Part shown: positions 1-47,200 of the stretch, in pieces
Layout of the letters: every line of letters starts with the position of its first letter
How positions within the stretch are numbered: position 1 is the stretch's first letter
From: Candidatus Poseidoniaceae archaeon
GTDB lineage: Archaea > Thermoplasmatota > Poseidoniia > Poseidoniales > Poseidoniaceae
Assembly (NCBI GenBank): GCA_949373095.1
Contig: CASIBY010000001.1
Location: 1,467-65,466, forward strand
Direction: 5' to 3'
DNA: 64,000 nt
Translations under genes and position numbers: made by a program
Notes under the pieces: generated by a model
Database searches by the model: none
What the model saw: the letters and a program-made list of their open reading frames with translations, nothing else
What the model was told of the DNA's origin: nothing

Positions 1-1
1 G

Positions 2-883
2 CCTGATGCATACGCTGGAGCGCCCGGACCCGTCGCAGGTGTTCTTGCTACAGCAAGCAAAGCAATGGGAATTGTAGGGCTTCTACGCATTCTTCTGGTG
101 GTTGCAGCTCCTGAAGGCATGGAGGATGCAACGACGGTGTGGCTCATCGCTCTGGCGGTCTTGTCCGTCATTACCATGACTTGGGGAAATATTGCAGCTC
201 TTGGTTCAACCAATCCAAAGCGAATGCTTGCTTACTCGTCTGTTGCTCATGCTGGATACATGCTTGCGGCTATTACAGCAATTGGTGCCTTGAACTGGGA
301 TGCCGCTCATGCTGATACGAGCAGAACTGCAGCACTTGCAGTTGTTACAGCGTTGATGTTCCATCTTGTTGTTCTGGTCTGTTTCAAACTTGGAGCCTTC
401 TTGGTTCTCTCTCTTTTGGAATCCGAAAACGGAGGGCACACCCTCGAGTCGTTGGGTGGCTTGGTCAAGCGAGAACCCTTCATCGCCGTTGCTATGTTCA
501 TCTTCATGATGTCTTTAGCAGGTGTTCCACCGCTTGCAGGTTTCCTCTCAAAGCTGCTCGTAATAATGGGTATCGTCAAGGCAGCACTCATCGAATCAAC
601 TGCCTCTGGCAATGTTACGTTTAGTGAAATCCACTGGATTTGGTATCTAGCCCTTATCATGGTAATCAATTCAGCAATTTCAGTCTTCTACTACCTCCGA
701 GTTGGCTTGGTGATGTTCTTCAACGAACCCGAAGAAGGCCGAGAGGGACCGCTTCCACGTGGGACTTCAGTCCGCTTAGCAATCGTAGCCTGTGTGGCTT
801 CAACGATTTACTTCGGTGTTGGCGCAGGGCAACTCATTGCACTATGCGAATCAGCAGCGAATGCCCTTGTTGGGGCATGGTGA
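2..883 (+). CDS. nuoN: NADH-quinone oxidoreductase (complex I) subunit N, C-terminal part; the 5' end lies upstream of the window
   Basis: The frame is open from base 2 (PDAYAGAPGPVAGVLATASKA...). KRMLAYSSVAHAGYMLAAI is the conserved NuoN/ND2 motif. The protein is hydrophobic with several TM helices. Confidence 0.85.
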   Translation, partial: PDAYAGAPGPVAGVLATASKAMGIVGLLRILLVVAAPEGMEDATTVWLIALAVLSVITMTWGNIAALGSTNPKRMLAYSSVAHAGYMLAAITAIGALNWDAAHADTSRTAALAVVTALMFHLVVLVCFKLGAFLVLSLLESENGGHTLESLGGLVKREPFIAVAMFIFMMSLAGVPPLAGFLSKLLVIMGIVKAALIESTASGNVTFSEIHWIWYLALIMVINSAISVFYYLRVGLVMFFNEPEEGREGPLPRGTSVRLAIVACVASTIYFGVGAGQLIALCESAANALVGAW

Positions 884-3430: not shown

Positions 3431-5296
3431 TCAATCCCTTGTCTTCCGCTGGAGCAAGGACAACCCAAACCCAACAAGGATGATGAGGAGTAATGATGGG
3501 GCAAACGAAGGAACGGTTCCAGGGGCGTCGAGGGACGCTCCGGTTACAACGAGATAATTCGCATTGTTGCTTTCATCGAATTCATCAATAACGTTTGCAA
3601 AATCGATGACAAGACGCAAATCAAACTGTCCCGATGTTGGGACAGTATAGTACCATGTCACGGTCTCTGTACTGTTTGAGAGCGTACCCAAGGGAAGATT
3701 TCGGGTTTCCATTACCGTCCACTCAACCGTTGAGGAACGGTCGGCAGGAGCTGATTCCAGGCGAACGATAACGCTCCCTGGATAATCTTGATTTGATTCG
3801 AGTACGCTCGTAATGGTGATGTTTCCGTTTTGTTCTCCTGGTCGTACGACCAATCGGTCAAGATTTGTTTGAGTTGCATTCCAATAGAGGTCTAATCCAG
3901 GGAGGATTTGGAAGGAAGCGGATTCAGTGGTGTAGGTATTGCCTGCCTCATCTTGTAAGAACGCCCTTAGCATAATGTGCTGGCGGGATTTTGTCACCCA
4001 GCTGGACAGGCCAATCTGTCCGTCAAGTCCGTTGACGCCTAAATTCAACCATCGGCCTGAAATATCCGGAGTTTGACCAACACCGTTGGAATCGAATCCA
4101 TACTGAATGTAGGAGGAAACATTATCCATTCCAGAACCGAGGTCTTCAGCGCTAAAAGAAACGTTTGCTGGACCGATTCTGCTGGTTGTAAGTTCGTCAA
4201 CAGTCCATCCGAGTGGTATAGGGTCCGTTTCATCTACGTTAATTTCAATCGTTTGGTTAGCACCAATATTCCCTACACGGTCAATGGCTCGAACAATGAG
4301 TTCATGGGTTCCCTCGGCAAAGGAGAGAGTCAATGAGTCGCTCGTTGTAGTGGTCCAAGATGAAGCTCCTGTGGCCATGTATTGGATGCTCTCAACCCCG
4401 GAACCTTGTCCGTCGTTGGCTGAAGTCATGATGTTACTGAGGGTGATGCTTCCAGAACGGTGCCATGTTGAGCCGTCACCAACAGTAATCGCTCCAATAG
4501 ATGGCCCTGTACGGTCAATGCCAATGTGGAATGTTGAGGTGTTAGAAAGTCCGGATTGGTCGTATACAGTGAGTCGGGGGGACCATGTGCCTTCGGGCAT
4601 ATTGCCTGAAGCCCAATCCCATCCATACGCCAGCGAAGTAGGCCCGTCGGTTGCTGGAGTTCCCGGTCCTGGGACCGTTGTGAGTGTTGCCTGTTTCAAA
4701 TCATCGTCGTTTGCACCCCAGCGGAAAGAAATTGTTCCTTGAGCGGGTATGTTGAACCATGCACGGTCGTTGATCGAGCTACCATTGCCAGCATTGGGGT
4801 TTAGCGCCGTGAAGATGGTAATCTCGGGAACCTGATTTGTGATATTGAAGGAGCCAGAAAGAGTGGTCGTATTGGCTTCTGCATCACTGTCCCAGCCGGT
4901 TGCTCGTAAGGTGTAACTTCCGTTCGTGTAATCGGTGCTGTCGAACGGGTACATCCAAGGCGTCTCGGTCAGGTTGACGACCGAACTGTAAACGGGTGTT
5001 GAGGTTGAGATGTCGTCATCGGTAATTTCGAGTAACAGGGAATCCAGTGTTCCGGTTCCAGTGATGCTGAAGGTTAGCGTTTGAAGCCCGGTAATGTTAT
5101 CATCTTGTGTGGGGCCATTTGAGAATGCAATAGAAAGACTCGAGGAGCCACTTTCAAAGGGCATAATGGCATCAGAGAGGGGCGATGTGTCTCCTTGCTG
5201 GGGCAGTGGAGCAGTCCCAGCGAAGAGGATGAGCACAAGCAAGATGCCCATACGACTCCGTCCCATGCATTCACGACAGGTGCGATTGTCCTTCAA
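3431..5296 (-). CDS. Secreted, C-terminally membrane-anchored surface protein with Ig-like/CARDB-like beta domains
   Basis: It has an N-terminal hydrophobic signal (GILLVLILFAGTAPL) and a C-terminal TM helix (LLLIILVGFGLSLL) followed by QRKTRD. A CARDB-like signature (NVIDEFDESNNANY) precedes the anchor, and NxS/T sequons are frequent. Confidence 0.6.
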   Translation of the reverse strand: MKDNRTCRECMGRSRMGILLVLILFAGTAPLPQQGDTSPLSDAIMPFESGSSSLSIAFSNGPTQDDNITGLQTLTFSITGTGTLDSLLLEITDDDISTSTPVYSSVVNLTETPWMYPFDSTDYTNGSYTLRATGWDSDAEANTTTLSGSFNITNQVPEITIFTALNPNAGNGSSINDRAWFNIPAQGTISFRWGANDDDLKQATLTTVPGPGTPATDGPTSLAYGWDWASGNMPEGTWSPRLTVYDQSGLSNTSTFHIGIDRTGPSIGAITVGDGSTWHRSGSITLSNIMTSANDGQGSGVESIQYMATGASSWTTTTSDSLTLSFAEGTHELIVRAIDRVGNIGANQTIEINVDETDPIPLGWTVDELTTSRIGPANVSFSAEDLGSGMDNVSSYIQYGFDSNGVGQTPDISGRWLNLGVNGLDGQIGLSSWVTKSRQHIMLRAFLQDEAGNTYTTESASFQILPGLDLYWNATQTNLDRLVVRPGEQNGNITITSVLESNQDYPGSVIVRLESAPADRSSTVEWTVMETRNLPLGTLSNSTETVTWYYTVPTSGQFDLRLVIDFANVIDEFDESNNANYLVVTGASLDAPGTVPSFAPSLLLIILVGFGLSLLQRKTRD

Positions 5297-5401
5297 TCCT
5301 CCCCTCCGTTTCTGCCTTCATTTACTCTTTCGGGCTTTCATACACCCTCCCGTATAATGTATTCAACGAAGAAGCACTGCGCTTAAACGGGCCAAGAAGA
5401 G

Positions 5402-8263
5402 ATGGGTTCAAGTGCTTTGCATGTGCAAGTGTTATCCATGCAGAGAACACCGAAGGCCGCCATCATCGTAGCCTTGTTATTGGTCACTTTGATTCCACTC
5501 CCCGTTCAAGCCGGCGACAGTGGAGGAGTTCAATCGTCTGTAGCTCAACTTGCATTGACTCCAGAAAACCCTGTCATGGGGGGCTCTGTGGACATCGAAG
5601 TTGGATTGTATAACAGCGCCCTAAGCGATGCGTTTGACGTCCAAGTTGCTTTTTACAAAAACTCAATTGCGACTCAGAACCGTCTTCTTCAAGATGAAAT
5701 AAACATTCCTGGAGAAAGTTTTGTCACGGTAAGTGTCACGTGGAATGGATTGACGGAAGGAGTGCAAAAGGTTTGGTTTGAATTTAGTGCTGGAGGCGAT
5801 ATTCCGGTTTCATTTAAAGAAGAATTTACAGTTCAGGGCCTACCTAACCTTCGAATTGATACCGCTTCAGTTGACCAAACTCAAGCGGTTTATTCTGGCG
5901 ATACCGTTGACTTCTCTGCTCTCGTGTTGAATTCAGGTTCGGTAGACGCAGGAGCTAGTAATATGTTGCTTAGCGTTCCAGAATCTGCCGATGTGATTCT
6001 CTCAACACCAGCACTTGTCGCAGGTTCTTCTGCTTGGGTCAACACCACCATTACCGCTCCTAGCAGTGGAATACATATGATTGAGGCAACACCAGATATT
6101 GACAATTTAATTTACGAGGCCTCAGAAATCGGAAAAACAGAGTCCGTTCAGTTGGTTGTTTCTAGCCGGATGGACCTTTCGTTCAAAGACGGTCTAACCG
6201 TTACAAGTGACGCGGAAGCACTCGAAGGGCCATGGTTGATTTCGGGAACGATTGTTCGCACTAATGGGACTGGAGCAGCAAACATCCCGATGGTTCTTGA
6301 AATCAACAACCCACTTGGCGGGGTAGTCATGGGCGCTCCCTTCACGGTACAAATTTTAGGAACAGGCTATGCAGAACAAGCCTTTTCGGCAGAACTGAAT
6401 TCCTCAACCATCGGTTCTCTACCCGACGGGGACCACGTTGTCACAGCGCGAATTAATCCGTTTGACGAAGTTGGTTTTGAACAAGAGTCAACCGATAATG
6501 ATGAAGCTTCTGGCATGCTTACTATCTCTCCAATTCCAGATGTGAACGTCGATCCTCCGCTTTGTACTGCATGTACCGTTCAATCGGGTGATGATGTTGA
6601 ATGGCGTATCACCGTAACCAATACTGGAGATAAAGCCGTACGAGGATACATTGAGTATACATTTGACGGAATTAACGGACAATCGCCTCAAATCACCCTT
6701 ACTGACGGAGAGATTCTGACTTGGACCGTAAGTTTACCAACCAACTTAGGAGAGCATGAAGCACTCTTCAACGGCAATTGGGTTGCGGCAGAAGGAAGTT
6801 GGGATGACAACAAGCAAAACTCGAAGTTTTCAACATCTGCTCAAGTTGAATCAAAATTGAAGTTAAGTTGGGAATATGCCTCCTTACAAATCATTGATGC
6901 TGACAACCAGTCAGTTGGAAGTCCTCTTCAGGACGGAGCAGCATACACGCTTTCTATCAATATGACAAGTAAAGAAACGGGTAGTGCAAATTTCACATGT
7001 GCTGACGGGTCGGGAAATATCCTCGCAACCTTGGCGACAAATGTTGCAGAGCGTGGAGATCGTGTGTCTCTATCATGCACCTTTACAGCAACTGCAGCAA
7101 TGACAACCCTCCGTATTATTCCAGATGAAACCAGTATTGCCGACCTCTTTAGCATGTCCTTTACGACATTAGCTTCAACCGAGGGTGCAGATGATGCAGG
7201 CTCATCAGAAGCAGGAACTATGACGCTGTTTGGTATTGGAGCCCTCATTCTTGTTGCCGTTCTCGTTGCAGCCATTCTCCTCACCCGGGAGCGCGAGGAA
7301 GAGGTTGAGCGAGACATCTTCGACTACTGCCCTTCCTGCGATGGAGAACTCGAAGGAACCGAGGACAAATGTCCCCACTGTTCCTTCAACCTCAAGAAAG
7401 CCCGAAGTCAGTTCCACGATTGCAAGGAATGTGGAGAATCAATTCCCGACTTGTTGGACAATTGCGCATACTGTGGAGCGGAGCAAGATGTTTCGTCTTA
7501 CTTTGAACAACGAGAACGCAAAGAACGTAAGGAAGTCGTCAAAGAGACGGTTGCCCTTCCAGAGGAAGAAGACGAAGATAGAATCGTTACCGGAACTCAA
7601 AACTTTGCTGAGACCGTCAAAGAATTCGGATTTGATGAAGAACACCTCGAGGAAGAGTGGGATGCAAATATCGAAGCTGCTGAAGCTGAAGTTGAGGCTG
7701 CATATGACCGCCGCTATGCTGACGAGATTGCCCTAGAAGATATGACTGAAGAAGAGGTTGAAACCTACAAGTCTCAAGTCGTTACAACACTCAAGTCGTC
7801 CCGGGATGAATCGCCCGATCACGACTTTGAGGCGATTCTCGCATCCAAGGGTGAATTGCGTTCATTGGCTAAGGAAGATGGGGAATTAAGCGCATCAGAT
7901 GCTAGTATCAGAGAACGTTTGTTCGAAATCACCGGTGAAGACGGTGTTTTGCCCGGTGAGAAGGTTACGGTCGGCATGACCCTTACCGACTCTGCTCTTG
8001 CTGGTAATGAAGTGGCTGAAGCAACGACAAACTTCTCGTTTGAAGATGATGATTTGCCCCTCTCGGCCTCTACCAAGACGGCTGACGAGCAACGAGAGGA
8101 TTCCAAAGCACGCAAACCTGTTCGCCGCCGAAGTGCACGTCAACGCAAGAAGGAAGAAGCAGGAAAAGATGTTGCTGAACAAACTTCCGAATGTGGAGCT
8201 TGTGGCGCAGAACTACCTCTTGATGCGGAGGAATGTGGGACCTGCGGTGCACGGTTTAGTTGA
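5402..8263 (+). CDS. Type I membrane protein: CARDB-like ectodomain repeats, one TM helix, and a cytoplasmic acidic region with three zinc-ribbon motifs
   Basis: The signal peptide is AAIIVALLLVTLIPLPVQA, so the likely true start is the ATG at 5438. CARDB-like motifs occur (FEQESTDNDEASG). The TM helix lies at about 7222-7295. It is followed by CPSC..CPHC, CKEC..CAYC and a terminal CGAC..CGTC. Confidence 0.65.
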   Translation: MGSSALHVQVLSMQRTPKAAIIVALLLVTLIPLPVQAGDSGGVQSSVAQLALTPENPVMGGSVDIEVGLYNSALSDAFDVQVAFYKNSIATQNRLLQDEINIPGESFVTVSVTWNGLTEGVQKVWFEFSAGGDIPVSFKEEFTVQGLPNLRIDTASVDQTQAVYSGDTVDFSALVLNSGSVDAGASNMLLSVPESADVILSTPALVAGSSAWVNTTITAPSSGIHMIEATPDIDNLIYEASEIGKTESVQLVVSSRMDLSFKDGLTVTSDAEALEGPWLISGTIVRTNGTGAANIPMVLEINNPLGGVVMGAPFTVQILGTGYAEQAFSAELNSSTIGSLPDGDHVVTARINPFDEVGFEQESTDNDEASGMLTISPIPDVNVDPPLCTACTVQSGDDVEWRITVTNTGDKAVRGYIEYTFDGINGQSPQITLTDGEILTWTVSLPTNLGEHEALFNGNWVAAEGSWDDNKQNSKFSTSAQVESKLKLSWEYASLQIIDADNQSVGSPLQDGAAYTLSINMTSKETGSANFTCADGSGNILATLATNVAERGDRVSLSCTFTATAAMTTLRIIPDETSIADLFSMSFTTLASTEGADDAGSSEAGTMTLFGIGALILVAVLVAAILLTREREEEVERDIFDYCPSCDGELEGTEDKCPHCSFNLKKARSQFHDCKECGESIPDLLDNCAYCGAEQDVSSYFEQRERKERKEVVKETVALPEEEDEDRIVTGTQNFAETVKEFGFDEEHLEEEWDANIEAAEAEVEAAYDRRYADEIALEDMTEEEVETYKSQVVTTLKSSRDESPDHDFEAILASKGELRSLAKEDGELSASDASIRERLFEITGEDGVLPGEKVTVGMTLTDSALAGNEVAEATTNFSFEDDDLPLSASTKTADEQREDSKARKPVRRRSARQRKKEEAGKDVAEQTSECGACGAELPLDAEECGTCGARFS

Positions 8264-19727: not shown

Positions 19728-19964
19728 CTAAGCCCACTCAGACATCAAACTGTTGAGTGACTCAACAATTGATGCGATGTCAACGGATTCCCCGTTCTCT
19801 TGAGCGAGTTGTAACCGGTTACGAACGGCTTCTATGGTTTCCTCAGATGGCGCAGAGCCGGTAATTTCCTCGATGACTTCACCGATGCTTTTCCCTCGTC
19901 CCTCCTCAATGGCTAGGAGCGCCTTGACGAATTCTTCTTCGTCCTTTGGTCGCCGAGCACTCAT
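19728..19964 (-). CDS. Hypothetical 78-aa acidic, predicted all-helical protein; last gene of the E1/JAMM operon
   Basis: The ORF starts 9 bp downstream of the JAMM gene stop on the same strand. The composition looks strongly helical (EEFVKALLAIEE, EETIEAVRNRLQLAQE). There is no C-terminal GG. Confidence 0.4.
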   Translation of the reverse strand: MSARRPKDEEEFVKALLAIEEGRGKSIGEVIEEITGSAPSEETIEAVRNRLQLAQENGESVDIASIVESLNSLMSEWA

Positions 19965-19973
19965 GCTTCCACC

Positions 19974-20513
19974 TCAACTGCAATGTTGTTTGTTCCTGTA
20001 CCACGAATGCCAGGGAGTTGGTTCTTCATTGGTCCAATTTGAGAGGGGTCCTTTGGAGGAAATGAACGGCGCTTCTAGTTGTTCATTGAACGTTGAATTG
20101 CTCGTGAATTTTGGGCCAGGTTCGCCCAAGACCATTGCGGTCTCTAGGATCATAGTGCCTAGAGATAGACTGTTGGTATCGGTAGTGCTCCAATACGCTG
20201 CAAAGTCCGGGTGAGTGTGGACCCACAACTTGAACGGACTTTTTGCCCCGACTGGGGGTTGGAGGGTCACTTGGCCAGCTGTTCCCCAATCGATGTAGAT
20301 GCAGTCTTCAGCGTCGATGAGAACAGATGTTTCCAAGCCTGCAAGAACAGACAAAATATACACGCCATCCCAACGGCTGTGAGCAGCCAATGTTTCTTGC
20401 GCTGAAAGGAGTTGAGGATTTCCAACCTGGCGTTCACTTGCTGCGAGACAGGCTTCATCCCACGTGGCTTCATCCAAACCAGTGTTGACAAATTCTGGGA
20501 GTTCAATCATCAT
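19974..20513 (-). CDS. JAMM/MPN+ (JAB) family metalloprotease
   Basis: A complete JAMM motif is present: H99-T-H101-PDFAAYW-S109-TT-D112 (HxHx7Sx2D). Its ATG overlaps the stop of the upstream E1-like gene by 4 bp (20510-20513). Confidence 0.7.
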   Translation of the reverse strand: MMIELPEFVNTGLDEATWDEACLAASERQVGNPQLLSAQETLAAHSRWDGVYILSVLAGLETSVLIDAEDCIYIDWGTAGQVTLQPPVGAKSPFKLWVHTHPDFAAYWSTTDTNSLSLGTMILETAMVLGEPGPKFTSNSTFNEQLEAPFISSKGPLSNWTNEEPTPWHSWYRNKQHCS

Positions 20514-21139
20514 GCTATCACCTCTGGAAATGAAAGAGCACCGTAGGTGATGCTACCCATAGTTTGAGTCGGGGAAGGCTTTCCTCGCAATTCTTGCATG
20601 GCCCATTGTGAACCAATGGCTGCTGCGACAGCAAATCCAAACTCTAGGTTTCCAGAGTCCAATGCCCCATCAACCTGGCAACTCTTCGGCTCATGGTCAG
20701 GTGTCATCTTTTGGACCAAACTTTGCGAGCTTTGAGATGTGAGGGCGACCCAACCATCTCCAGAACATCGCAAATCAATCCAAGGGACGTCAAGACCATG
20801 AACCAAGCGACGGGGCTCTGGCCTGTCAACGCAGACCACGACCAAATCAAAATCGTCGAGTTGGTTGGCTTGTCTCAAATTTTCTGGAAGACCTGTAACA
20901 TTGACATGTTCTGAATTAAGTCGTTGAGCCAGCTGGATGACTTTATGATGGCCAACATCGGTCAAACTGTAGCGTTGATGACCAAGATTGGTTGGTTCTA
21001 CGGTGTCAGCATCCATGATGGTCACTGAGCAGGGTAGCGAGACTCTCGTGATGGCTGGAATCAGGTTTTCCAAAAGACTTGCACCGATGCCACCGGCTCC
21101 GACGACAAGCAGTTTTTTCACGGGGGGTTCAGCGTTCAT
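20510..21139 (-). CDS. ThiF/MoeB/E1-like adenylyltransferase (short, 209 aa, no rhodanese or extra domains)
   Basis: It has a Rossmann GxGxxG motif (LLVVGAGGIGASLLENL) and the E1 signature DADTVEPTNLGHQ. It also has the VVVCVDRPEPR segment typical of the ThiF family. Confidence 0.8.
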   Translation of the reverse strand: MNAEPPVKKLLVVGAGGIGASLLENLIPAITRVSLPCSVTIMDADTVEPTNLGHQRYSLTDVGHHKVIQLAQRLNSEHVNVTGLPENLRQANQLDDFDLVVVCVDRPEPRRLVHGLDVPWIDLRCSGDGWVALTSQSSQSLVQKMTPDHEPKSCQVDGALDSGNLEFGFAVAAAIGSQWAMQELRGKPSPTQTMGSITYGALSFPEVIA

Positions 21140-21175
21140 GAGAAATAAATCCCGTCACGCTTTATGAAGAAATCA

Positions 21176-22462
21176 TCATCGAGTTAACATCTGCTCTAAT
21201 GCCGCAATTTGAACTGGGAGTGTGAAATTCTCTTCGACATACGGCCGCCCAGATTTTGCCCACTGCTTGCGTAGGGATTCGTCCTCTAATGAAGCGTAAG
21301 CATTGTTCCAAGCCTCTTCATCATCCCTTCGCAAAAGTCTTCCAGACTCAACGGGTGTCATCGTGCATTGAAATCCGCCTTCATCTACCATTAATGCAGG
21401 GGTACCCACCGCCATTGCCTCAATTGGAGTCAATCCAAACGGTTCGTGATGCGCATGACTGACCATCGCTTTTGCACCCCGAATCAATCCACACAATGCA
21501 GGTTGAGACAGTCGCGGCATGCAATGGACGGGCACTCCAATTCGTTTTCCTTCCTGAATTAATGTGGCTCGGTCTTCATCAGTTCCGCCTCCGACTTGAA
21601 CCAGTTCCAAGCCTGTTCCTACGAGGGATTGCAATGTCTCCCAAGTCCCTTTCACATGCGAAATTTGTCCGATTGTCACCACATATGGCATTTCAGTGAG
21701 GTTGATTCCTGATACTTCCTTTTCTTCTTCAGAATCTGGTTCTAATGGCCATTGCTTCATATCAATAACATGCATGAGATGGGTTGCTTCTAGAGGCCTA
21801 CCCTTTGCGTCCCTTTTGGGAGGTTCCCCATTTTCTTTGGTCGGGTCTGACGATAATCCGTAGACAGATTTTATTCTTCGTTGGATCCACATTGAATTTC
21901 CAGAAATTGATGACTTCGGACGAGCAAAAAGCTGGCGAACATAGGCTCTATCCCGTCGGCGTTGCCTTGTGAACAAAAGTTTCGTCAACCAAAGCGGGCG
22001 TTTTAGTTTCCCGTTGAGTTGGCGGTGAAGGACATCCTCATACAACCATCTCGGAGGCTCAAGGCAATGATAGTGGATTGGAAGGTGAGGGGGTATGTGC
22101 GGCAAGAGTTCCAGCGTTCCCTTACACACAGAAAGATGCACTGCGTCATAGTTTTCCCACGGGATCTCAACGGTAGCCCAGGCCTTTTCCGCTTCTCGGC
22201 TTAAGCGAGCCGAGACTTCCGATAGGGCGCCAGTATGCCAAGTAATACTGGTCGCAGGGTGAAATACTGGGACGTTGGCAGTTCCAAGCAGCGTTTCAGC
22301 ATCATCGGTCATTTTCAGCGTAGCCAATCCAAGCGTCCATCTTCCATATGTTGCCCTCATGAGTTGGAGCAATTCCCGTTCCGCCCCGCCTAAACTTGCA
22401 AAGGAACCCCGAACAATGAGAACTCGCAGCGGTGCTGCTCCCTCATGGTTGGACTTAGCCAT
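21176..22462 (-). CDS. Glycosyltransferase, GT-B fold (GT4-like)
   Basis: The N-terminal part reads RVLIVRGSFASLGGAEREL and the C-terminal signature is HHEPFGLTPIEAMAVGTPALMVDEGG. It ends 36 bp upstream of the E1-like gene on the same strand. Confidence 0.75.
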   Translation of the reverse strand: MAKSNHEGAAPLRVLIVRGSFASLGGAERELLQLMRATYGRWTLGLATLKMTDDAETLLGTANVPVFHPATSITWHTGALSEVSARLSREAEKAWATVEIPWENYDAVHLSVCKGTLELLPHIPPHLPIHYHCLEPPRWLYEDVLHRQLNGKLKRPLWLTKLLFTRQRRRDRAYVRQLFARPKSSISGNSMWIQRRIKSVYGLSSDPTKENGEPPKRDAKGRPLEATHLMHVIDMKQWPLEPDSEEEKEVSGINLTEMPYVVTIGQISHVKGTWETLQSLVGTGLELVQVGGGTDEDRATLIQEGKRIGVPVHCMPRLSQPALCGLIRGAKAMVSHAHHEPFGLTPIEAMAVGTPALMVDEGGFQCTMTPVESGRLLRRDDEEAWNNAYASLEDESLRKQWAKSGRPYVEENFTLPVQIAALEQMLTR

Positions 22463-23809: not shown

Positions 23810-25135
23810 ATGGCGGAAGGTCTTGACTTACTGGATGACATCGGATTGATTCTTAGCATCTTCATTCTTCTCTTCATCTCATACTTTCACCTTCGTGCTC
23901 TTGATGACAAACGAACATGGGACCGAAAGTTAGGTGCCGCCCTGGTAATTTGGCTTTTGTTATACTTCATTCTTCGTCGTTTGCAGGAGCTCGTCCCTTC
24001 TGTAGGAATTGACAACCCCGATGTGAGTGGATTGATTGTTGAACTTTCTGCTTATTCATCATCAATGAATTTCTATTATATCCATCTCTTTTTGATGCTC
24101 TTAGTTCCGATTCCATTCTTGAGAAATGGTTGGCAAATTGGTGCTGTTGGTTTCATTGTTGTCTTGATTACCTACATCGACCGTTCAGCGGTTAGCGCCG
24201 ATGCAGATCCGTTTTACAATTCACTGCTGCTTTTTTGTATGATTTTACTTGCTTGTTTGGTGTGTTTCACCGTCGGATTGAGGTTTCTACTCTTCCCACC
24301 ACCTCTTGAAGACAAGAGCGAAGAGGCTCTGGCTTTGCGCCGTTCCGGATACTTCGCCTTAGGAACAATTGCTGTGGTCATGGACAACATGATATTTCGC
24401 TCCATTGGATTTCTTGATGGGTCGGCCAATGCTTGGTGGACCTTCCCAACGGTCAACTATTCTGCAGCAACATCTGGATACAATTACGCCATGGTGACCT
24501 TGGCTGAAATGACCTTTGTATTGGGTGTATTTTCGTTCATGATGCTGTCATTTGCTGTAGGCTGCACTTACCATATCGTTCAATGCCTCAGGAAAAAGCA
24601 CCCAGTCAGTCTTGCAACTGTTTTTTCAGGGTACATACTCTTTATTTGGGCCCTCATAATTTTCCGTCATTGGGCATTTGTAACCGGCTATGCAACTTGG
24701 GATATGGCGGAAAATCCGCTTGATTCAAATGCCGAAATAATTACTGCTCTCAGCGATGGGTTCAGTTTTCATCTGATTTATCCGACCATCGCTTTATTGC
24801 ACGCAGTTAAGTTTGGGCTCATTACCATTGAGACAGATCGTGACAGAAAGGTTCTCCGCATCGTTTCTCTCGGTGTGATGGTGGCGATTACCGCAGTGTT
24901 CACAACGTTACTGGAAGTCATCATTCCGGTTCCAGATATCGTTCTCGCCGTTCTCTGTGGTCTTGTTCTTGCAACGGGATGGGAGCGTTATCTCATCGAT
25001 GCCTTGGAGCCCGATGAGGAAATGAAAACTGTCTCATGGGCCTGGCCCGGTAATGAGCGTAGCATGATTTGGGGAGTCAATCTTATGATTGGAATTCCCT
25101 TTGTCATCAAACTTCTAGCAGGGGTGATTTGGTGA
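23810..25135 (+). CDS. Polytopic integral membrane protein (about 10-12 TM helices), function unknown
   Basis: Hydrophobic helices run through the whole protein. The ATG at 23810 lies about 25-30 nt downstream of an AT-rich TATA-like box. The stop overlaps the ATG of the next gene (TGATG at 25133-25137). Confidence 0.6.
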   Translation: MAEGLDLLDDIGLILSIFILLFISYFHLRALDDKRTWDRKLGAALVIWLLLYFILRRLQELVPSVGIDNPDVSGLIVELSAYSSSMNFYYIHLFLMLLVPIPFLRNGWQIGAVGFIVVLITYIDRSAVSADADPFYNSLLLFCMILLACLVCFTVGLRFLLFPPPLEDKSEEALALRRSGYFALGTIAVVMDNMIFRSIGFLDGSANAWWTFPTVNYSAATSGYNYAMVTLAEMTFVLGVFSFMMLSFAVGCTYHIVQCLRKKHPVSLATVFSGYILFIWALIIFRHWAFVTGYATWDMAENPLDSNAEIITALSDGFSFHLIYPTIALLHAVKFGLITIETDRDRKVLRIVSLGVMVAITAVFTTLLEVIIPVPDIVLAVLCGLVLATGWERYLIDALEPDEEMKTVSWAWPGNERSMIWGVNLMIGIPFVIKLLAGVIW

Positions 25136-26676
25136 TGCGTACCGAAAAAGAACTCATGAGTCTCAAAAAGAACGAATTAGTCGCCATTGCCGAAGAGTAT
25201 GACTTGTCATCCACGGGGACGAAAGAGGAGATTACAAAGCGTATTGTGGTTCATCAAATGGAACGCTACGACCAGGAAACAGAACGCCTAGAAGATGTGT
25301 TGTACCATAACCCTGAGGAAGGAGAGGGGCTGTTGGTGCCATCCCAAGCAATGAATGATAGTGAAGTAAAACCGGATTCAATCACATTTGGAGCACTTGG
25401 TTCGGACGCTAGTGAAACCAATCTAGAAACAGTAAATGCTGTAGAATCTGTATCAAATCACAATGTCTTCAAAGAACTTCCATCACGAACCTTCGTTGCA
25501 GGAGGCTATGCGTTCAAACCTTATCTTGCAACACTTACAGTTGTTTTCCTCATGATGTTTGGCTATGGCTTCCAGGATTACTACGGAAGTAATTTCTCTT
25601 ACCCGGGAGACGATAAGGCCACTGTTGACTGCATCCGAGTATCGTATTACGTGGACGGAAATGGTAACGATTCAGGTTATGACCCTATGAGTCAAGCTAA
25701 TCTTGATTGTGCAGAAGTATTGGACATCTCTCCAAATTGGTGGCAGGAAGATATGGACGCTTGGGTCCAAAGTCTCCTCAATTCAGCTACTTCGGACGGC
25801 AATCACTCCGGGTTCGTATGGACCCAGCCTGGAATTGATACAATGGCGTATCTCGGCGCTACGACCTTTAATACAAACATGAGTGTTTTTGGAGACCCTC
25901 TCGCAGGAGACGAGTTCACTGAGCAGCATCTTGCAATTTGGAACGGCTTTGGAGCAACATTCCCTGGCGGTGGGAACGATTCCATCGAAAGTTTGCTCCA
26001 AGGGGGAAACAGTCCCTTCTCAATTTACATGCCTGCAGGAATCGTAGACCACAGACCTACAGGTTATTTGTGGACTCAATCTGGAATCGACACCATGGCT
26101 TACCTGGGTGCTACCACGTTCAATACGAACATGAGTGTCTTTGGAGACCCTGTCGCAGGTGATGTATTTACTGAGCAACACCTTGCTGTTTGGAACGGAT
26201 TTGGTGGGATGTTCCCAGGTGGAGGAAACGACAGTATTGCAGATTTGCTCCCAGGCGGGGCAAGTCCCTTTGCCGTTTACATGCCTACAGGAATTGTTGA
26301 AGATGCCCCAACGGGGTATCTTTGGAGCCACCCTGGGGTCCCCACAATGAGCAATCTTGGTTCTTCCACATTCGGGGCCAACATGAGCGTTTACGGTGAT
26401 CCAGTCCCGGGGGACGTCTTTACTGAAGCCCACCTTGCTGTTTGGAACGGCTTCACGCTCGCCCTTGGAGGAGGAAACGACAGCATTGCGAGTTTGCTCC
26501 CCGGCGGAAACAGCCCGTTTTCGATTTACATGCCCAGTGGAATTGTCATCACGCAAGTGGAATGGGACAACCAAACGCCATCGGCGAGCAATGTCACTCT
26601 CTCTGTAAACAATTCGACTACACCTTCGGTGTATTCGCTCAACTATGTGTTTTATGACGGGCAAAATGGATACTGA
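25135..26676 (+). CDS. HeH/SAP-like N-terminal domain, single TM helix, extracellular region with three 84-aa tandem repeats
   Basis: The N-terminal LMSLKKNELVAIAEEYDLSSTGTKEEITKRIV fits the SAP/HeH (Rho_N-like) pattern. The TM helix lies at about 25513-25575. The three repeats read W(T/S)QxGIDTMAYLGATTFNTNMSVFGDPxAGDxFTEQHLAxWNGF...GGGNDSI..LL.GG.SPF..YMPxGIV. Confidence 0.65.
   Translation: MRTEKELMSLKKNELVAIAEEYDLSSTGTKEEITKRIVVHQMERYDQETERLEDVLYHNPEEGEGLLVPSQAMNDSEVKPDSITFGALGSDASETNLETVNAVESVSNHNVFKELPSRTFVAGGYAFKPYLATLTVVFLMMFGYGFQDYYGSNFSYPGDDKATVDCIRVSYYVDGNGNDSGYDPMSQANLDCAEVLDISPNWWQEDMDAWVQSLLNSATSDGNHSGFVWTQPGIDTMAYLGATTFNTNMSVFGDPLAGDEFTEQHLAIWNGFGATFPGGGNDSIESLLQGGNSPFSIYMPAGIVDHRPTGYLWTQSGIDTMAYLGATTFNTNMSVFGDPVAGDVFTEQHLAVWNGFGGMFPGGGNDSIADLLPGGASPFAVYMPTGIVEDAPTGYLWSHPGVPTMSNLGSSTFGANMSVYGDPVPGDVFTEAHLAVWNGFTLALGGGNDSIASLLPGGNSPFSIYMPSGIVITQVEWDNQTPSASNVTLSVNNSTTPSVYSLNYVFYDGQNGY
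25810..26562 (+). repeat. Three in-frame tandem repeats of 252 bp (84 aa) inside the CDS 25135-26676
   Basis: Repeat units start at 25810, 26062 and 26314, so the period is exactly 252 bp. Many differences between units are synonymous third-position changes (for example atgagtgtttttggagaccct / atgagtgtctttggagaccct / atgagcgtttacggtgatcca). Confidence 0.9.
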
Positions 26677-26916: not shown

Positions 26917-28981
26917 ATGGCACAGTCTTGGAGGTTCGATGGTTTTCCCGGGCGCGTGCTTTGGGTTGATTTGACCAAAGGAACTTGTGAAGAGCGAATC
27001 ATTCCACACGAATGGTGTCTTTCGTCGATGGGAGGCAAGGCACTTGCCACCAAACTTCTTGTTGAATGGGATACAACTGACTACGTTTCTGCGACAAAAC
27101 AGATTCATCCTGTAACTGGAAAAATGGATGCTGCATCGCACCCGACGACCCCACTTTTGTTCATGACGGGCCCTTACCAAGCTTCCAAGATTGGGTCCTC
27201 AGGGCGCGCTGTGGTCGTCACTCGGTCTCCCTTAACCGAGTGTTATATTGACACTTACATCGGAGGCAACATTGGTCATGACCTGCGAAAAGCAGGATGG
27301 GACGGTCTCTTTATCACTGGTGCAAGCGAACGCTGGGTGCGCCTTGAAATCAATGACGAGCAAGCTCGACCTCCATGATGCAGAACCGTTGCTGGGGCTT
27401 TCCACCTGGGAAGTTGAGAAACATCTTGATGAACTCGGCGAATGCCTTTCTATCGGTCCTGCGGGTGAAAACGGAATTCGCATTGCGTCCCCTTTGACCG
27501 CTGGAAGGCGTGCGGCAGGGCGCGGAGGAACGGGCGCTTCATTCGGATTCAAACGTCTCAAAGCCGTTACTATCAAAGCAAGTTCTGAATCTTCATCCAT
27601 GGTCCGGTATTCAAACGATTTTTCCCTTGGCGATGCTGTCAAAAAGCAGCGGAGTGAAATGGGTTTGCGCAGGAAGTCGGGGGACCCATTCTACAGTTTT
27701 GGGACAAGTCGAGGCCCACTCTATGCTGCTGAGAACGGGCGAATGCCAACCGCAAATTACGCATCAACAGACGCACAAATGCCCGACCTCTCTACGCTCA
27801 AAGCAGGAGGAGGCAAAGGTGGCCAAACGGCAGAGGCAGTTCGAAAGGGAGCAACTCCAGTTCCAATTCAAACCAAACTATCAACTCATGAACTCTCAGG
27901 TGAACACTGGCACGAATCATTGCCCAACGCCAAACAATCAGGATGCTGTGCCCCATGTCCTATTGCTTGTGAGGCTGCTGACCGTCCGGTCATTGACGGG
28001 AAGAAATTCCGCGGCCGACCGGTTCATATGAATCGTGTTGACCGGCCTGAATACGAAACCTTGGCGATGTTGGGTTCCAATCTTGGCATCGGTTCTAGTC
28101 TTGATGTGATGGATGGAAACGATGCGTGCAACCGGCTGGGTATGGATACCATTTCCTCTGGTGCTGCGCTCTCATTTGTATGCGAGGCAACAGAACGAGG
28201 ATGGCTGCATGACTCCTGGGCTGACCATTTCCATGCACCATTTGATTTCGGTTCGTTCAAGGAGGGAGATGTTGTTCCATGGCGGTTTGGTATTCCAGAA
28301 TTACCGCCATTAGCTCTTCATCTCTTGGCTCATGCAACTCCAGGGGATGGGACGCTCTTTGGAACACTCACTGCGGGTGCTGTCGGTATGAGTGAGTGGA
28401 TGGAGAATGAAACTGGCCATCCAACCACACGCCTAACCGCTCACTGCAAAGGGCTAGATTTGCCGGCTTGGGATCCACGTGGGAAGCGTGGAAATGCCAT
28501 GGCGTACATGACGTCTAACGTTGGGGCCAATCACATGCGTGCGAATTACAAGGATCCAACAGGACTTCCAAATCGCTCTGCAGTTGACCTCATGGGTGAA
28601 CTTGTCATCAGCCAGCACAGCATTGTGATTCGTGATTCTATGATTTTGTGTGCCTTTGCAAAAGGCGCTACGCCCGACCACATCATGCTTGATGCATGGA
28701 ATGCAATTACGGGTGAGGGTTGTGAATGGAGTGACCTCATGCAGCGGGCTCAAGTTCAGTGGGACGCTGCCCGTCAGTGGAATGTGGACCATTGGTTGCG
28801 CCAAGGTAAAGATGCAAAACAAGAGGACCTGCTTTCATGGCGACTGCGGAATGAACCCGTAACGAGTGGCGTTGCATCAGGGATGGTTTCATTCGTCGAT
28901 GAATCTGATGAAGAAGCGTGCATGGCCGAATATTACAGGTACCGAAAATGGAGTCCGGGAGGGTTGCCCATTGGAGCCTGA
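26917..28981 (+). pseudogene. Aldehyde:ferredoxin oxidoreductase (tungsten/molybdopterin AOR family) interrupted by a single-base (+1) frameshift near 27364
   Basis: The N-terminal AOR domain is in frame 1 (26917-27363, ...GWDGLFITGASERWVRLEINDEQ). After base 27364 is skipped, frame 2 continues colinearly (LDLHDAEPLLGLSTWEV...IGPAGENGIRIASP...AAGRGGTGASFGFKRLKAV). The Fe-S ligand motif CAPCPIAC (CxxCxxxC) is present downstream. Confidence 0.8.
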
Positions 28982-44241: not shown

Positions 44242-47200
44242 ATGACAGCGTCTTCTCGTAGTGGTTCGCGGGTAATTTTTGTCACACTTCTCTTCCTTTT
44301 ACCGTTGTTGACAGCAATTCATCCCCTCAATGAATCTGAATCAGTTGACCCCATGGTTCAGAATACTGGAGCTCGGGCTCAAGTCACCTGGTCGGGCACT
44401 AAGGTCCTCTCAGCCACCTACACCGTCCCTGTTTCGGATGAATTGGTCATTCAGGCCTGTACAGTGGTCCAGATGGGCGGGGGAGTGCGCATTATTGTCG
44501 ACGGTCGCCTCACCGTACAGGGGACTCAAAGTTGTCCTGTAACCCTCGAAGCGAGCGGACTTTCAGACCACGAAGGCATTCAATTCAATGCTTCCTCCTC
44601 AGGACGCGGTTCCTTTATCCAAAATTTAACGATTGAGGATTCCATTTACGGAATGACGATTTACAGTTCAAATCCCGTTATTGAAAATTTGACTGTGGCC
44701 AATCCAGACCGAGTGGGCGTTGACATGTTCAACAACGCTGCTCCAAGAATCACAGATTTATTCATCGATCAAGCCGGACGAGAATTGGCCTTTCAAGGTG
44801 ACTGGCGTTATGGTATTGGTCTTTCAATCGGCGCAGGCTCTACCCCAATTGTTACACGCGCAGTCTTCAGTGATGTTTTGACACGGGGAGTGAACATTTG
44901 GGGCGCATCAGGCGGACTTGTACAGGGGATTACCATTGACAATTGTTCAGGGTCAAGTTGGGCTATGGCTGCTGGGGTTTGGGTTGAAGACAGCCAACCT
45001 CTTCTCACAAACGTCTCTATTGACAAATCAGATACAGGCATGGTCATTCGTCATATTGACGACGGAGGCTATACTCGTGCAGTTGTCCGCGATGCAACGA
45101 TTACAAATTCAATGTACCGCGGCGTCTATGTTGACAAAAACAATCACACCAATTATACCAATTATGAGACCGCCGATTTCACAAACCTAACCATTCGTGG
45201 GACGGGAACGAGCGGAGCAACAACAGCGAACATTGGTTTTGCAGCACTTGAAGTCAACGCCACCGGTGCGTGGTTTGACAACACCCTCATTGAAGATTCA
45301 ACAACCGTTGGTGTGCGTTTGTACTTCGTCGATGATACCACCACCTTCCGAAACCTGACGATACGAGATTCAGGAGACCCGGGTCAAGGACCTCATGAAG
45401 CTGGACTTGCTGTCAGGTCGTCGTTTTTCGCACCTCACTTTGAGGAAATGGAAATTACGGGCTCAGTTGGACCAGGCATCTCTTCAACCTCAGGAGGGGC
45501 CATGCAAGGATTTGATTGGAACTTACACAATAATTCACAGCAGGGGTTGTTGATTGATAGAGCCACTGTGGTGGTCAATGAACTGGAACTCAACGACAAC
45601 GGACAGTCCGGTGCACATGTTCTAAATGCAAGATATGTGACATTTGAAAACCTCACTGCAGCAAATAACGGCGGAGATGCAACAAGTAATCCATTGCCGC
45701 AAAACCAAGCGGGCTTGTATTATGATGAATCCAACGATATGGAATCAGAATCAGGTGATGTTCGTTGCAGGAACTGTACGGTATCAGGGTCTACCGGAGC
45801 CGGTATTTTGGCTGAAAACTCAGTTGACTTGTGGCTTGAGGGCCTCACACTCTACGGGAACAGCGCAGATGTTCCCGCGCTCAGCGTCAATAATGAGGAC
45901 ACTATGCCTGCAGGTGCTAGTGGACGCATCAACATTCTCCAAGCGAGCATTGGTGCAGAAAGCCCAGGGCAGCCAGCCGTTGAACTGTTGCGAACAGCAG
46001 CCCACATCGAGGGGTTGTCTATGGTTGGAAACCATACTGGCTTAAATTGGAGTGGTGACAATAATGGAAACTTTGCATCAACAATTTCCGACAGCGAATT
46101 TTCAGGAACCTCCTGCGTCAAATTAACTAATCATCCCAACCTTGGTGGCCAAGGAAATACCATCACATCATCATGTTTTGGTTTTGTCCAACTGATCAAC
46201 AGTCAAGTGAATTGGTCAAACCTTGAAGATGAATTAGGTACGACAATGATTCAACTTGATGACACTTCCGACCTCCATCTTCATCAGCCCATTAATGTTG
46301 ATTTGAACTTGGCTTCCTTTTCAGGAACAGCGACCGTTGATGTTGCCTGGGACCTCACCATATGGGTTGTAAACAACTTCACAAACGGTGTTCCAAACGC
46401 AAACGTTGATGCAACATTCACAGACTATGAGCCATCAGTACAAGAGTATACGAACGATTTAGGCTATGTTTTCCTATCGGATTTCATAGGGCAACAGTGG
46501 ACTTCCTCAGGAGCATCTTCCTTCAACACTGTCACCGTTCAATGCGGCTACGATAGCATCACGAATTCAACCAGCGCAACACTCGACCAGAATAGGTTTG
46601 TGAATTGTTTACTACCCCTTGACAATCAAGCCCCGTTCTTGATGTGGACCTCGCCTCTGGATGAAACGATTTATCCCTCTCAAGGCGAAGTGATGTTCAA
46701 CGCAAGCGATTCTTGGGACCTTGATGATGATGAACTCACGTTCACATGGAGCAGTGACCTCGATGGTGATATTGTGGCGTCATGTACCGGACAGGGGCAT
46801 GGCAACGGGCAGGGGATTACTCAACAAGATATGACCAATGGAGTTCCATTCACAGTCAATACAAATTATCTGAATATGGGGTGCCAATTATCCGATGGGA
46901 TTCACCTCATCACACTTGAAATCTGCGATGATGCAGGTCATTGTGTATCCGAGGTTCGGACCATTGAATTGGTGAATCTCGCTCCAATTCTTGTCGTTGA
47001 CTTTGAACCCTCTTTGAATCCGTGGAGTGAACTCATCATGCCGCAAACCGGGACCGTGGTCATCAACACCACGGGCACATTTGATCCAGAAGGTGATGAT
47101 TTCGCATGCGTCATCGATTTCAACGGCGAAGGCGCCGGTTGGGGCAACCAGTGGGTGTGTCCCGAGGAACTCACGTACACCTTCGATTATACCACCGAGG

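Follow-up and report, generated by a model that had tools for sequence, protein, structure and literature searches.

What does an E1-like enzyme paired with a JAMM protease act on when neither a ubiquitin-like protein (Ubl) nor an E2 is encoded beside it? This question is raised by three minus-strand genes in a 64-kb stretch of the chromosome of a Poseidonia (Marine Group II) archaeon (hereafter the window, to which all coordinates refer), which encode a short E1-like protein, a JAMM/MPN+ metalloprotease and a small acidic protein that we name SM here. Prokaryotic E1/JAB/Ubl systems are the roots of eukaryotic ubiquitin signalling and also serve as antiviral tools, as in the cyclic oligonucleotide-based antiphage signalling system (CBASS) and in Bil. 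We found the trio to be a genuine variant of this machinery that is strongly conserved and has not been described before, and its missing Ubl is explained at the level of the family, in which outlying lineages keep a linked Ubl-like gene. With slightly more confidence than doubt, we favour the reading that the trio is an E2-less module for Ubl activation and deconjugation with SM as an obligatory third subunit, and that it represents, in Poseidoniaceae, a wider family spanning marine Thermoplasmatota, their mobile elements and viruses. It would be an E2-less archaeal system distinct from that of the small archaeal modifier proteins (SAMP/UbaA), and it is fixed in essentially all sampled Poseidoniaceae, a dominant group among the archaea of the surface ocean. 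A search of the literature on Poseidoniales and magroviruses for ThiF, JAB or ubiquitin found no prior description.

Conservation and components of the gene trio

Homologues of the E1, JAMM and SM proteins were found in Marine Group II archaea (Candidatus Poseidonia, Poseidoniaceae and Poseidoniales). Scanning GTDB with one genome for each species returned 142 JAMM relatives, and the best 80 of these 142, together with six loci from metagenome assemblies, make up the 86 related loci compared below; the named loci among the 80 kept were all from Poseidoniales. The order E1-JAMM-SM was invariant across the 86 loci wherever the extent of the contig shows it, and the E1 and JAMM genes overlapped by 4 bp in 86 of 87 loci (window counted). 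A sequence-only reading of the window had reported the three open reading frames (ORFs), the ATGA overlap between E1 and JAMM, gaps of 9 bp between JAMM and SM and of 36 bp to an upstream glycosyltransferase gene, and the motifs GAGGIGASL, DADTVEPTNLGHQ and HxHx7Sx2D, all of which we could confirm. The 9-bp gap, although real in the window, is not a typical feature, as JAMM and SM overlap by ATGA in 84 of 86 loci and the window is one of the two exceptions. It is due to a window-specific 1-nt insertion in an A-run (~19991), which swaps the last ~8 JAMM residues and abolishes the usual overlap with SM. Either a sequencing error or strain variation may account for the insertion, which leaves the catalytic domain of JAMM untouched.

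All three genes evolve under constraint, with median ratios of nonsynonymous to synonymous substitution (dN/dS) of 0.10 for E1, 0.14 for JAMM and 0.13 for SM. Given that SM orthologues were present at 85 related loci, with a length fixed at 78-79 residues and this low dN/dS, the smallest ORF is a real gene under purifying selection.

The E1-like protein matched Pfam ThiF (PF00899) over residues 9-190 (61.5 bits against a cut-off of 28.1, 8.7e-17). In 76 E1 sequences G14xGGIG19, D43xD45, NLGHQ55, K66, D105-R106 and C154, the latter in the motif TPDHxPxSCQ, were invariant, and the C-terminal half was rich in further, family-specific invariants (W120, D122, R124, TPDH149, S153-C154-Q155 and GNLEFG). 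The adenylation residues of MoeB are D62, which binds ribose, R73 of the NLxRQ motif, K86 and D130, which binds Mg; at the corresponding positions, matched by motif and not by structural superposition, D43, K66 and D105-R106 are invariant and the Arg position holds an invariant His. C154 is a candidate catalytic cysteine: it was kept in the fused, mobile-element and viral relatives described below, while C103 and C125 were not, and it lies ~49 residues past the Mg-binding Asp, the place of the crossover-loop cysteine in ThiF-type enzymes (C184 in ThiF).

Housekeeping E1 enzymes were considered separately. The best NCBIfam match was PRTRC_ThiF (68 bits, under its cut-off of 144.75), and the equivalog models scored far below their cut-offs: 42.8 bits for ThiF (159), 29 for MoeB (266), 27.5 for UbaA (450) and 18.7 for MoeZ (647). 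No TcdA model was among the NCBIfam matches, and TcdA chains aligned with the E1 profile over residues 9-111 only (E = 2.6e-5), more weakly than MccB, Uba1 and Cap2. Among solved structures, Cap2 was the top match of the single E1 sequence (3e-7), and the E1 profile matched MccB, Uba1, a bacterial ThiF-type protein, Uba4, Cap2, MoeB, ThiF and TcdA at 23-39 bits, the scores for MccB, Uba1, Cap2 and MoeB all falling between 30 and 39. The E1-E2 models of PADLOC matched the E1 domain only, corresponding to the E1 part of Cap2 models, and PHROGs gave generic matches only. These scores and partial alignments rule out orthology with MoeB, ThiF, UbaA, MoeZ or TcdA, and the adjacency to JAMM is universal.

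The second protein is accepted here as a divergent, catalytically intact JAMM protease, as judged from its motif and its predicted fold. Its motif HTHPDFAAYWSTTD reads as HxHx7Sx2D (H99-T-H101-x7-S109-x2-D112) with an upstream E61, and E61, H99, H101, S109 and D112 were conserved at 98% or more in 79 distinct homologues; distant and viral relatives keep the catalytic motif as well. The protein begins with a helical extension carrying an invariant R47-W48-D49. Its AlphaFold2 model reached a mean predicted local distance difference test (pLDDT) score of 89.6 and a predicted template modelling (pTM) score of 0.87, and a Foldseek search of the PDB returned Rpn11, Prp8-Jab1, CSN5, AF2198 and AMSH at the top, followed by cytidine deaminases (JAB/MPN matches: probability 0.9-0.97, E from 4e-3 to 0.1, TM-scores 0.3-0.5). 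Foldseek also matched the model to two marine viral proteins in a viral structure library (E = 9e-9 and 8e-8).

SM is acidic, with 17 Asp and Glu against 8 Lys and Arg, and ends in ...SEWA, as opposed to the Gly-Gly (GG) of a Ubl. The AlphaFold2 model, built from a shallow alignment (pLDDT 66.7), places helices at residues 9-23, 27-35, 41-56 and 63-76 and no strands; SM is therefore predicted to be all-helical and not a ubiquitin-like β-grasp protein, which agrees with the sequence-only reading on charge, fold and terminus. SM had no credible Pfam match, no NCBIfam or PDB sequence relative and no fold match. Conserved features comprise an N-terminal R-x-P-x-D-x-x-E (in a low-confidence tail), G22-x-G24, N49-R50, E56 and a C-terminal W-A, and across 13 deep SM representatives only D8, E11, G22 and the terminal Ala (12 of 13) were conserved. 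Of the 85 Poseidoniaceae sequences, 80% end in Ala, 13% in Val and 3.5% in Ile, and a few in Ser or Gln; distant SMs end in WA, NA, MA or QA and the L170-type protein (see below) in Gly, so that the residues beside the terminus vary. This terminal conservation is not a by-product of gene overlap, because the SM stop codon overlaps no other gene. In the model the terminus follows straight after a helix, with only two or three low-confidence residues and no long flexible tail.

Two other identities were considered for SM and set aside. Its size, charge, four helices and weak AcpM/ACP matches suggested an acyl-carrier-like protein (ACP), which was dropped because the position of the phosphopantetheine-bearing serine (S26) varies among S, T, N, P, A and R. 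Segment 26-52 resembles a DNA-binding helix-turn-helix, but the net charge is about -9 and no profile matched.

A Ubl-like gene linked to the module in distant relatives

An exhaustive search with a hidden Markov model (HMM) of the JAMM alignment returned 145 cluster representatives, and selected contexts were inspected. One divergent trio (P0262, L091/L092) retained Poseidoniaceae-like synteny. Three others, P0273 (L087/L088), P0266 (L172) and P0278 (L174), encoded E1, JAMM and a 79-82-residue SM homologue (SM HMM E-values of 7e-20 for L087, 5e-15 for L172 and 2.6e-21 for L174) in unrelated cellular contexts; the neighbours of distant modules were enolase, RNase H and GcvH, or methylmalonyl-CoA mutase, or FtsZ and HisRS. 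An SM homologue lay 3' of the JAMM gene in L087, L089, L091, L172 and L174, five cellular contexts that are not syntenic, and SM was the third gene of the module in every cellular version. In two clusters drawn from many samples (P0282 and P0295), E1 and JAMM are naturally fused into a single 405-408-residue protein, followed with a 4-bp overlap by an 86-residue SM, and these fusions argue for a physical complex.

The fusion clade also has a 71-residue ORF ending in ...SLQGGH, 113 bp upstream of the fusion gene, whose homologue in virus-like contigs ends in ...IVGG plus two variable residues (pairwise E = 4e-9). A metagenome scan for this Ubl-like family returned 69 loci with 38 distinct sequences, and all 38 had an invariant GG followed by one or two variable residues. 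In L170, a 92-residue homologue overlapping the start of the E1 gene continues for eight residues past the GG (...LVGG followed by MNDNESQR), and the family as a whole ranges from 66 to 92 residues. Precursors trimmed by JAMM proteases in the CysO and QbsE systems classically bear this signature, a GG that is conserved and an extension that varies. The family's E1 was found together with the Ubl-like gene in every sufficiently long locus, either directly downstream (fusion clade) or ~6.4 kb downstream (virus-like contigs), and a JAMM gene was present as well wherever the stretch extends to it. The Ubl-like proteins aligned with ubiquitin end to end, weakly (E = 1.2), and Pfam ThiS matched two of ten members, also weakly (E = 0.019).

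Two kinds of contig that are probably mobile or viral carry the Ubl-like gene with E1 and JAMM. P0267 (L170/L171) has the order E1, JAMM and a 74-residue acidic protein ending in EEWG, which is a weak SM homologue; its contigs are short, carry a T7-like RNA polymerase (PF00940) and an AAA ATPase and were binned with a Poseidoniaceae metagenome-assembled genome. This element, which may be a small mobile element or a virus, bears a four-gene cassette of Ubl, E1, JAMM and small acidic protein (L170 1-7265, and L171; contigs of up to ~9 kb in our collection). The P0311-type contigs recur at 81-91 kb. Their small ORFs are densely packed and run in one direction, they encode a ribonucleotide reductase as well as a thermosome subunit and an RFC-like ATPase, and several are IMG/VR viral contigs. 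Their E1 is 184 residues long and has the family motifs, with the JAMM gene ~0.8 kb further downstream, and the complete set of Ubl (GG+2), short E1 and JAMM was seen with conserved synteny in L093-L098 and L108-L167 (81-91 kb). The gene content matches the description of magroviruses by Philosof et al. (PMC5434244), which suggests that these ~90-kb contigs are virus-like and, more specifically, magrovirus-like. A tblastn search of GenBank phage records with the viral JAMM gave no match. Complete Ubl, E1 and JAMM sets in ~90-kb magrovirus-like genomes have, to our knowledge, not been reported, and we found no mention of them in the magrovirus literature searched.

In neighbour-joining trees of E1 and JAMM the Poseidoniaceae clade was monophyletic and the Ubl-linked lineages sat on several outer branches, from which we infer that Ubl linkage is probably ancestral and was lost from the Poseidoniaceae operon. 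The sequence-only reading had seen no Ubl or E2 nearby, and this was borne out: a regular-expression search of the 64-kb window for small ORFs ending in GG found none that is Ubl-like, and no E2 was found there. Searches of L087, L091 and L172 with the Ubl-family HMM likewise returned nothing. That reading had named as a refutation a canonical Ubl or E2 in the same conserved cluster, and this applies in part: a Ubl-like gene ending in GG is part of the cluster in the fusion archaea, the mobile element and the virus-like contigs, and not in Poseidoniaceae. The fusion clade has both SM and a linked Ubl, and L170 has the Ubl with a weak SM homologue, so that SM is not a simple substitute for the Ubl. 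In L172, an unannotated gene of at least 155 residues (1-468, plus strand) ends exactly at the E1 start codon, the position of the Ubl gene elsewhere; it may encode an additional lineage-specific partner.

Proposed function, rival readings and known systems

In the mechanism that we propose for an E2-less Ubl module, the trio would be a self-contained operon with its own TATA box, probably leaderless and with translationally coupled genes, whose E1, JAMM and SM products would form a stoichiometric complex. E1 would adenylate a small protein at its C-terminal carboxylate, at the expense of ATP, and the acyl group would probably pass to Cys154 and from there to an amine of a target without an E2, as with UbaA and the SAMPs, while JAMM would trim precursors and hydrolyse the resulting (iso)peptide bonds. 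The ancestral activated protein would have been the 66-92-residue Ubl-like protein with its conserved GG and one to eight removable residues, whose gene would be the one still linked in the fusion clade, the L170-type element and the virus-like contigs; in Poseidoniaceae it would have left the operon and be either unlinked or lost. SM would be the constant third subunit and either a second substrate or a pseudo-substrate regulator. Given the conservation of its acidic N-terminal motif and its terminal Ala or Gly, we suggest that one active site, that of E1 or of JAMM, reads the SM C-terminus, which would either be genuinely activated by E1 or serve an obligatory subunit as a docking or pseudo-substrate element. 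Two of the possibilities raised at the outset are still plausible: the small helical protein may be a non-canonical partner or substrate, or a Ubl may be encoded elsewhere.

Several observations weigh against this proposal. The invariant His of NLGHQ replaces the ATP-contacting Arg of MoeB-type NLxRQ, and the E1 profile aligns with solved structures only over residues 5-110 or, at most, 5-120, its C-terminal half matching none. JAMM membership is drawn from the motif together with sub-threshold matches of fold and of Pfam Prok-JAB (14.5 bits against a cut-off of 25, E = 0.03), and a β-grasp fold for the linked Ubl from a sequence pattern and weak profile matches. By HMM, this Ubl family was absent from the 64-kb window and from within 6 kb of the 86 Poseidoniaceae loci. 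SM itself has no conserved Cys, Ser or Lys, about 17% of the Poseidoniaceae SMs end in Val or Ile, and the virus-like contigs lack SM, with no consistent analogue 3' of the viral JAMM gene.

In function, the module would most resemble, by analogy, the E2-less SAMP/UbaA/HvJAMM1 system of Haloferax volcanii, which is likewise archaeal and chromosomal and in which one E1-like enzyme and one JAMM protease mature and remove a small modifier. Unlike UbaA, the trio's E1 has 209 residues and no CxxC zinc motif in its sequence, besides scoring 27.5 bits against the 450-bit UbaA cut-off. The JAMM protein is far from Pfam Prok-JAB, an extra helical subunit is present, the enzymes are encoded together and even fused in relatives, and the linked Ubl is a separate family with no Pfam model above threshold.

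In architecture, the closest described arrangement is class 6d of Iyer et al. 2006, in which a Ubl and an E1 come with a JAB protein whose JAB-N extension has conserved Arg and Trp, with an E2-like protein and with an α-helical protein in which charged residues are conserved. Judged by the taxa listed for it and by the likeness of the E1, this Iyer-Burroughs-Aravind class may correspond to, or overlap with, the PRTRC cassette. The shared points are a Ubl with C-terminal Gly, the Arg/Trp extension of JAB (here R47-W48), an E1 that lacks a rhodanese domain and a small helical protein that also conserves charged residues; in contrast to class 6d/PRTRC, the trio has no E2-like protein or ParB, and its hosts are archaea and viruses rather than proteobacterial plasmids. 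Each component was compared by hhalign with two plasmid PRTRC cassettes (one from Novosphingobium): the JAMM family aligned with PRTRC protein A over the catalytic motif only (E = 0.019), and nothing was found for the Ubl against protein C or for SM against protein E or a 73-residue ORF. With an E1 score of 68 against 144.75 bits, no PRTRC match for JAMM or SM and an hhalign match confined to the motif, the trio is not a PRTRC cassette. No family in Pfam, NCBIfam, PADLOC or PHROG captured the JAMM protein, SM or the Ubl.

A possible, if on balance doubtful, alternative is that in Poseidoniaceae SM itself is the modifier, with E1 adenylating its terminal Ala and attaching it to amines and JAMM removing it. 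This would be conjugation without a β-grasp modifier, as performed by Cap2/Cap3 on cGAS, and where a Ubl is present the E1 would have two substrates. In CBASS type II, a non-β-grasp protein with a terminal Gly or Ala is the E1 substrate and a JAB protein reverses the reaction; cGAS was revealed as the Cap2 substrate by a C-terminal Gly/Ala that is conserved only in Cap2/Cap3 operons, beside variable penultimate residues, and Val at its C-terminus abolished conjugation (PMC10097602). SM echoes this terminal signature of cGAS, with Ala in 80% of the 85 Poseidoniaceae SMs and in all distant ones, Gly in the L170 type and a last residue unconstrained by any neighbouring gene. Cap2 is also the best single-sequence match of E1 among solved structures, and the catalytic residues of E1 and JAMM are under strong purifying selection at 86 loci with no linked Ubl. 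On the other hand, SM occurs beside a linked Ubl in the fusion clade and the L170 element, ~17% of Poseidoniaceae SMs end in the Val that blocks cGAS conjugation or in Ile, the modelled terminus directly after a helix offers no long flexible tail, and a docking or pseudo-substrate motif would explain the conserved C-terminus equally well. A rather unlikely extension of the same idea is that the trio is a core, vertically inherited operon in which a four-helix modifier, SM, is activated at its Ala by a minimal E1 and removed by JAMM, with viruses carrying a Ubl-type sister system; if true, the host SM system and the viral GG-type Ubl system might be a means by which host and virus interfere with each other. 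The most interesting possibility left is that E1 acts on SM as a substrate without a β-grasp fold, and the compact three- or four-gene set lends itself to in vitro study of two questions: what determines which C-termini an E1 accepts, and whether modifiers other than β-grasp proteins occur beyond CBASS.

Membership in CBASS was rejected. Besides the Cap2 resemblance, the likeness consists in the PADLOC E1-E2 models matching the E1 domain, but the trio has no E2 domain, CD-NTase or effector, only E1 residues 8-114 align, JAMM and SM have no PADLOC match, and the operon is part of the core chromosome, with GT4, gmd and dehydrogenase/hydratase neighbours, and not of a defence island. MccB, the microcin C7 synthetase, was the top match of the E1 profile among solved structures (E = 4e-9) and provides a precedent for E1-like enzymes adenylating C-termini that are neither Ubl nor Gly; only the Rossmann half aligns, however, and MccB, which lacks a JAB partner, carries a peptide-clamp domain at its N-terminus.

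That the E1-JAMM pair serves sulfur-carrier or cofactor chemistry (tungsten or molybdenum cofactor, thiamine, or CysO-type cysteine synthesis), with an unlinked MoaD/ThiS/SAMP-type carrier and SM as an accessory, is in our view very unlikely. JAMM trimming of GG-x carriers does have precedents in CysO/Mec+ and QbsE/QbsD (also Iyer et al. 2006): in the CysO/Mec+/MoeZ and QbsE/QbsD/QbsC systems JAMM strips the post-GG residues before adenylation by E1, and the linked Ubls here carry GG plus one to eight residues. Two of the ten linked-Ubl members also gave the weak ThiS match, and a gene for aldehyde:ferredoxin oxidoreductase (AFOR) lies 3-6 kb off in Poseidonia loci. Those systems, however, have E1s with a rhodanese domain beside biosynthetic enzymes, and here no rhodanese domain and no MoaE, ThiG or CysM partner was found in any context. 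The E1 falls far under the MoeB, ThiF, MoeZ and UbaA cut-offs, the AFOR neighbourhood is confined to the genus Poseidonia, and the presence of the module in virus-like contigs and a mobile element would be unexpected for cofactor sulfur chemistry.

Most unlikely is a role of the host trio in virus-host conflict, be it counteracting the viral set, being mimicked by it or acting as an antiviral system like Bil or CBASS type II: the contents are complementary (Ubl, E1 and JAMM without SM in viruses; E1, JAMM and SM without a linked Ubl in hosts) and the closest named E1 relatives, Cap2 and PRTRC, belong to conflict systems, but defence systems are usually patchy and mobile, whereas the host trio keeps a fixed chromosomal position with housekeeping neighbours (best 80 of 142 relatives), shows no compositional anomaly or effector gene, and matches PADLOC in its E1 domain only, with none for JAMM or SM. 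As for Bil (BilABCD), its operon likewise joins a Ubl and an E1 to a JAB deconjugase; the BilB-type E2 needed there is absent here, PADLOC matched only the E1 domain and no defence context was seen. With no E2 or Ubl in the window or the 86 loci, the trio was not assigned to Bil.

Genomic setting and other features of the window

The positions of the trio and of other features of the window are collected in Table 1. The sequence-only reading had treated the nesting of the trio in a glycosylation locus as a functional clue. A gmd gene upstream, which in the window is divergent, and a dehydrogenase gene downstream flank the trio at nearly every Poseidoniaceae locus, as synteny across the family would predict, but the GT4 gene next to E1 was absent in ~17 related species, in which gmd lies 114-384 bp from E1. 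The arrangement GT4-E1-JAMM-small ORF, proposed as something to look for in related genomes, is therefore conserved for the trio, which is present in all 86 loci, and not for GT4. The slot between gmd and E1 varies among Poseidoniaceae, even among near-identical relatives (compared in L008, L013, L020, L021, L025, L033, L044, L048, L065, L068, L071, L072, L075, L081 and L086), and behaves like a variable glycosylation-gene site; L008, for example, has no upstream GT4 although its trio is 91-95% identical to that of the window.

Table 1. Features of the 64-kb window, with the trio first
Feature	Position	Strand	Remarks
E1-like protein	20510..21139	-	209 residues; orphan E1 clade; ORF and Pfam ThiF match
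JAMM/MPN+ metalloprotease, divergent	19974..20513	-	179 residues; start codon overlaps E1 stop (ATGA, 20510-20513)
SM	19728..19964	-	78 residues; acidic; predicted four-helix protein
TATA-like box TTCATAAAG, putative promoter	21161..21174	-	~22-35 nt upstream of E1 ATG
1-nt insertion	19989..19992	-	A-run near JAMM 3' end; DNA alignment with three closest relatives
GT4 glycosyltransferase	21176-22462	-	36 bp upstream of E1 gene
AFOR, split into overlapping ORFs	26917-28981	+	ORFs 26917-27378 and 27248-28981
Repeat protein	25069-26676	+	535 residues
Very large ORFs	3431-8263 and 44242-49029		621, 953 and 1595 residues

When the 60-nt stretches upstream of 80 distinct loci were anchored on the E1 start codon, an A+T peak and a conserved box appeared at -35 to -23, irrespective of GT4 or gmd lying upstream; in relatives the box reads TTCTTTATAT or TATATAT. 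Judged by its sequence and position, it would act as a promoter, placing the trio on its own leaderless tricistronic mRNA. A functional link to GT4 or gmd is ruled out by the presence and absence of GT4 and by the trio's own box. Because the contexts of distant relatives are unrelated as well, we regard the glycan setting as neighbourhood and not mechanism, and the third early suggestion, a glycan or cofactor chemistry unrelated to Ubls, is unlikely given the failed GT4 link and the varying contexts.

Beyond gmd, the other neighbours of the trio are a convergent 3-hydroxyacyl-CoA dehydrogenase/enoyl-CoA hydratase gene and, past it, a second GT4 gene. The base composition showed no anomaly, and the remaining window is ordinary archaeal chromosome, with genes for eIF1A, a RIO kinase, ribosomal protein S2, Dus and AFOR. 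The AFOR orthologue in L001 and L002 is one 687-residue gene, and its split in the window is probably a frameshift, from sequencing error or in a pseudogene. The 535-residue repeat protein, which comes after a 447-residue multi-pass membrane protein, carries a SAP-like motif at its N-terminus and, internally, three long repeats that are nearly identical (GYLWTQSGIDTMAYLGATTFNTNMSVFGDP). Among the very large ORFs, those of 621 and 953 residues contain CARDB and Big_13 Ig-like domains, which are typical of archaeal surface proteins.

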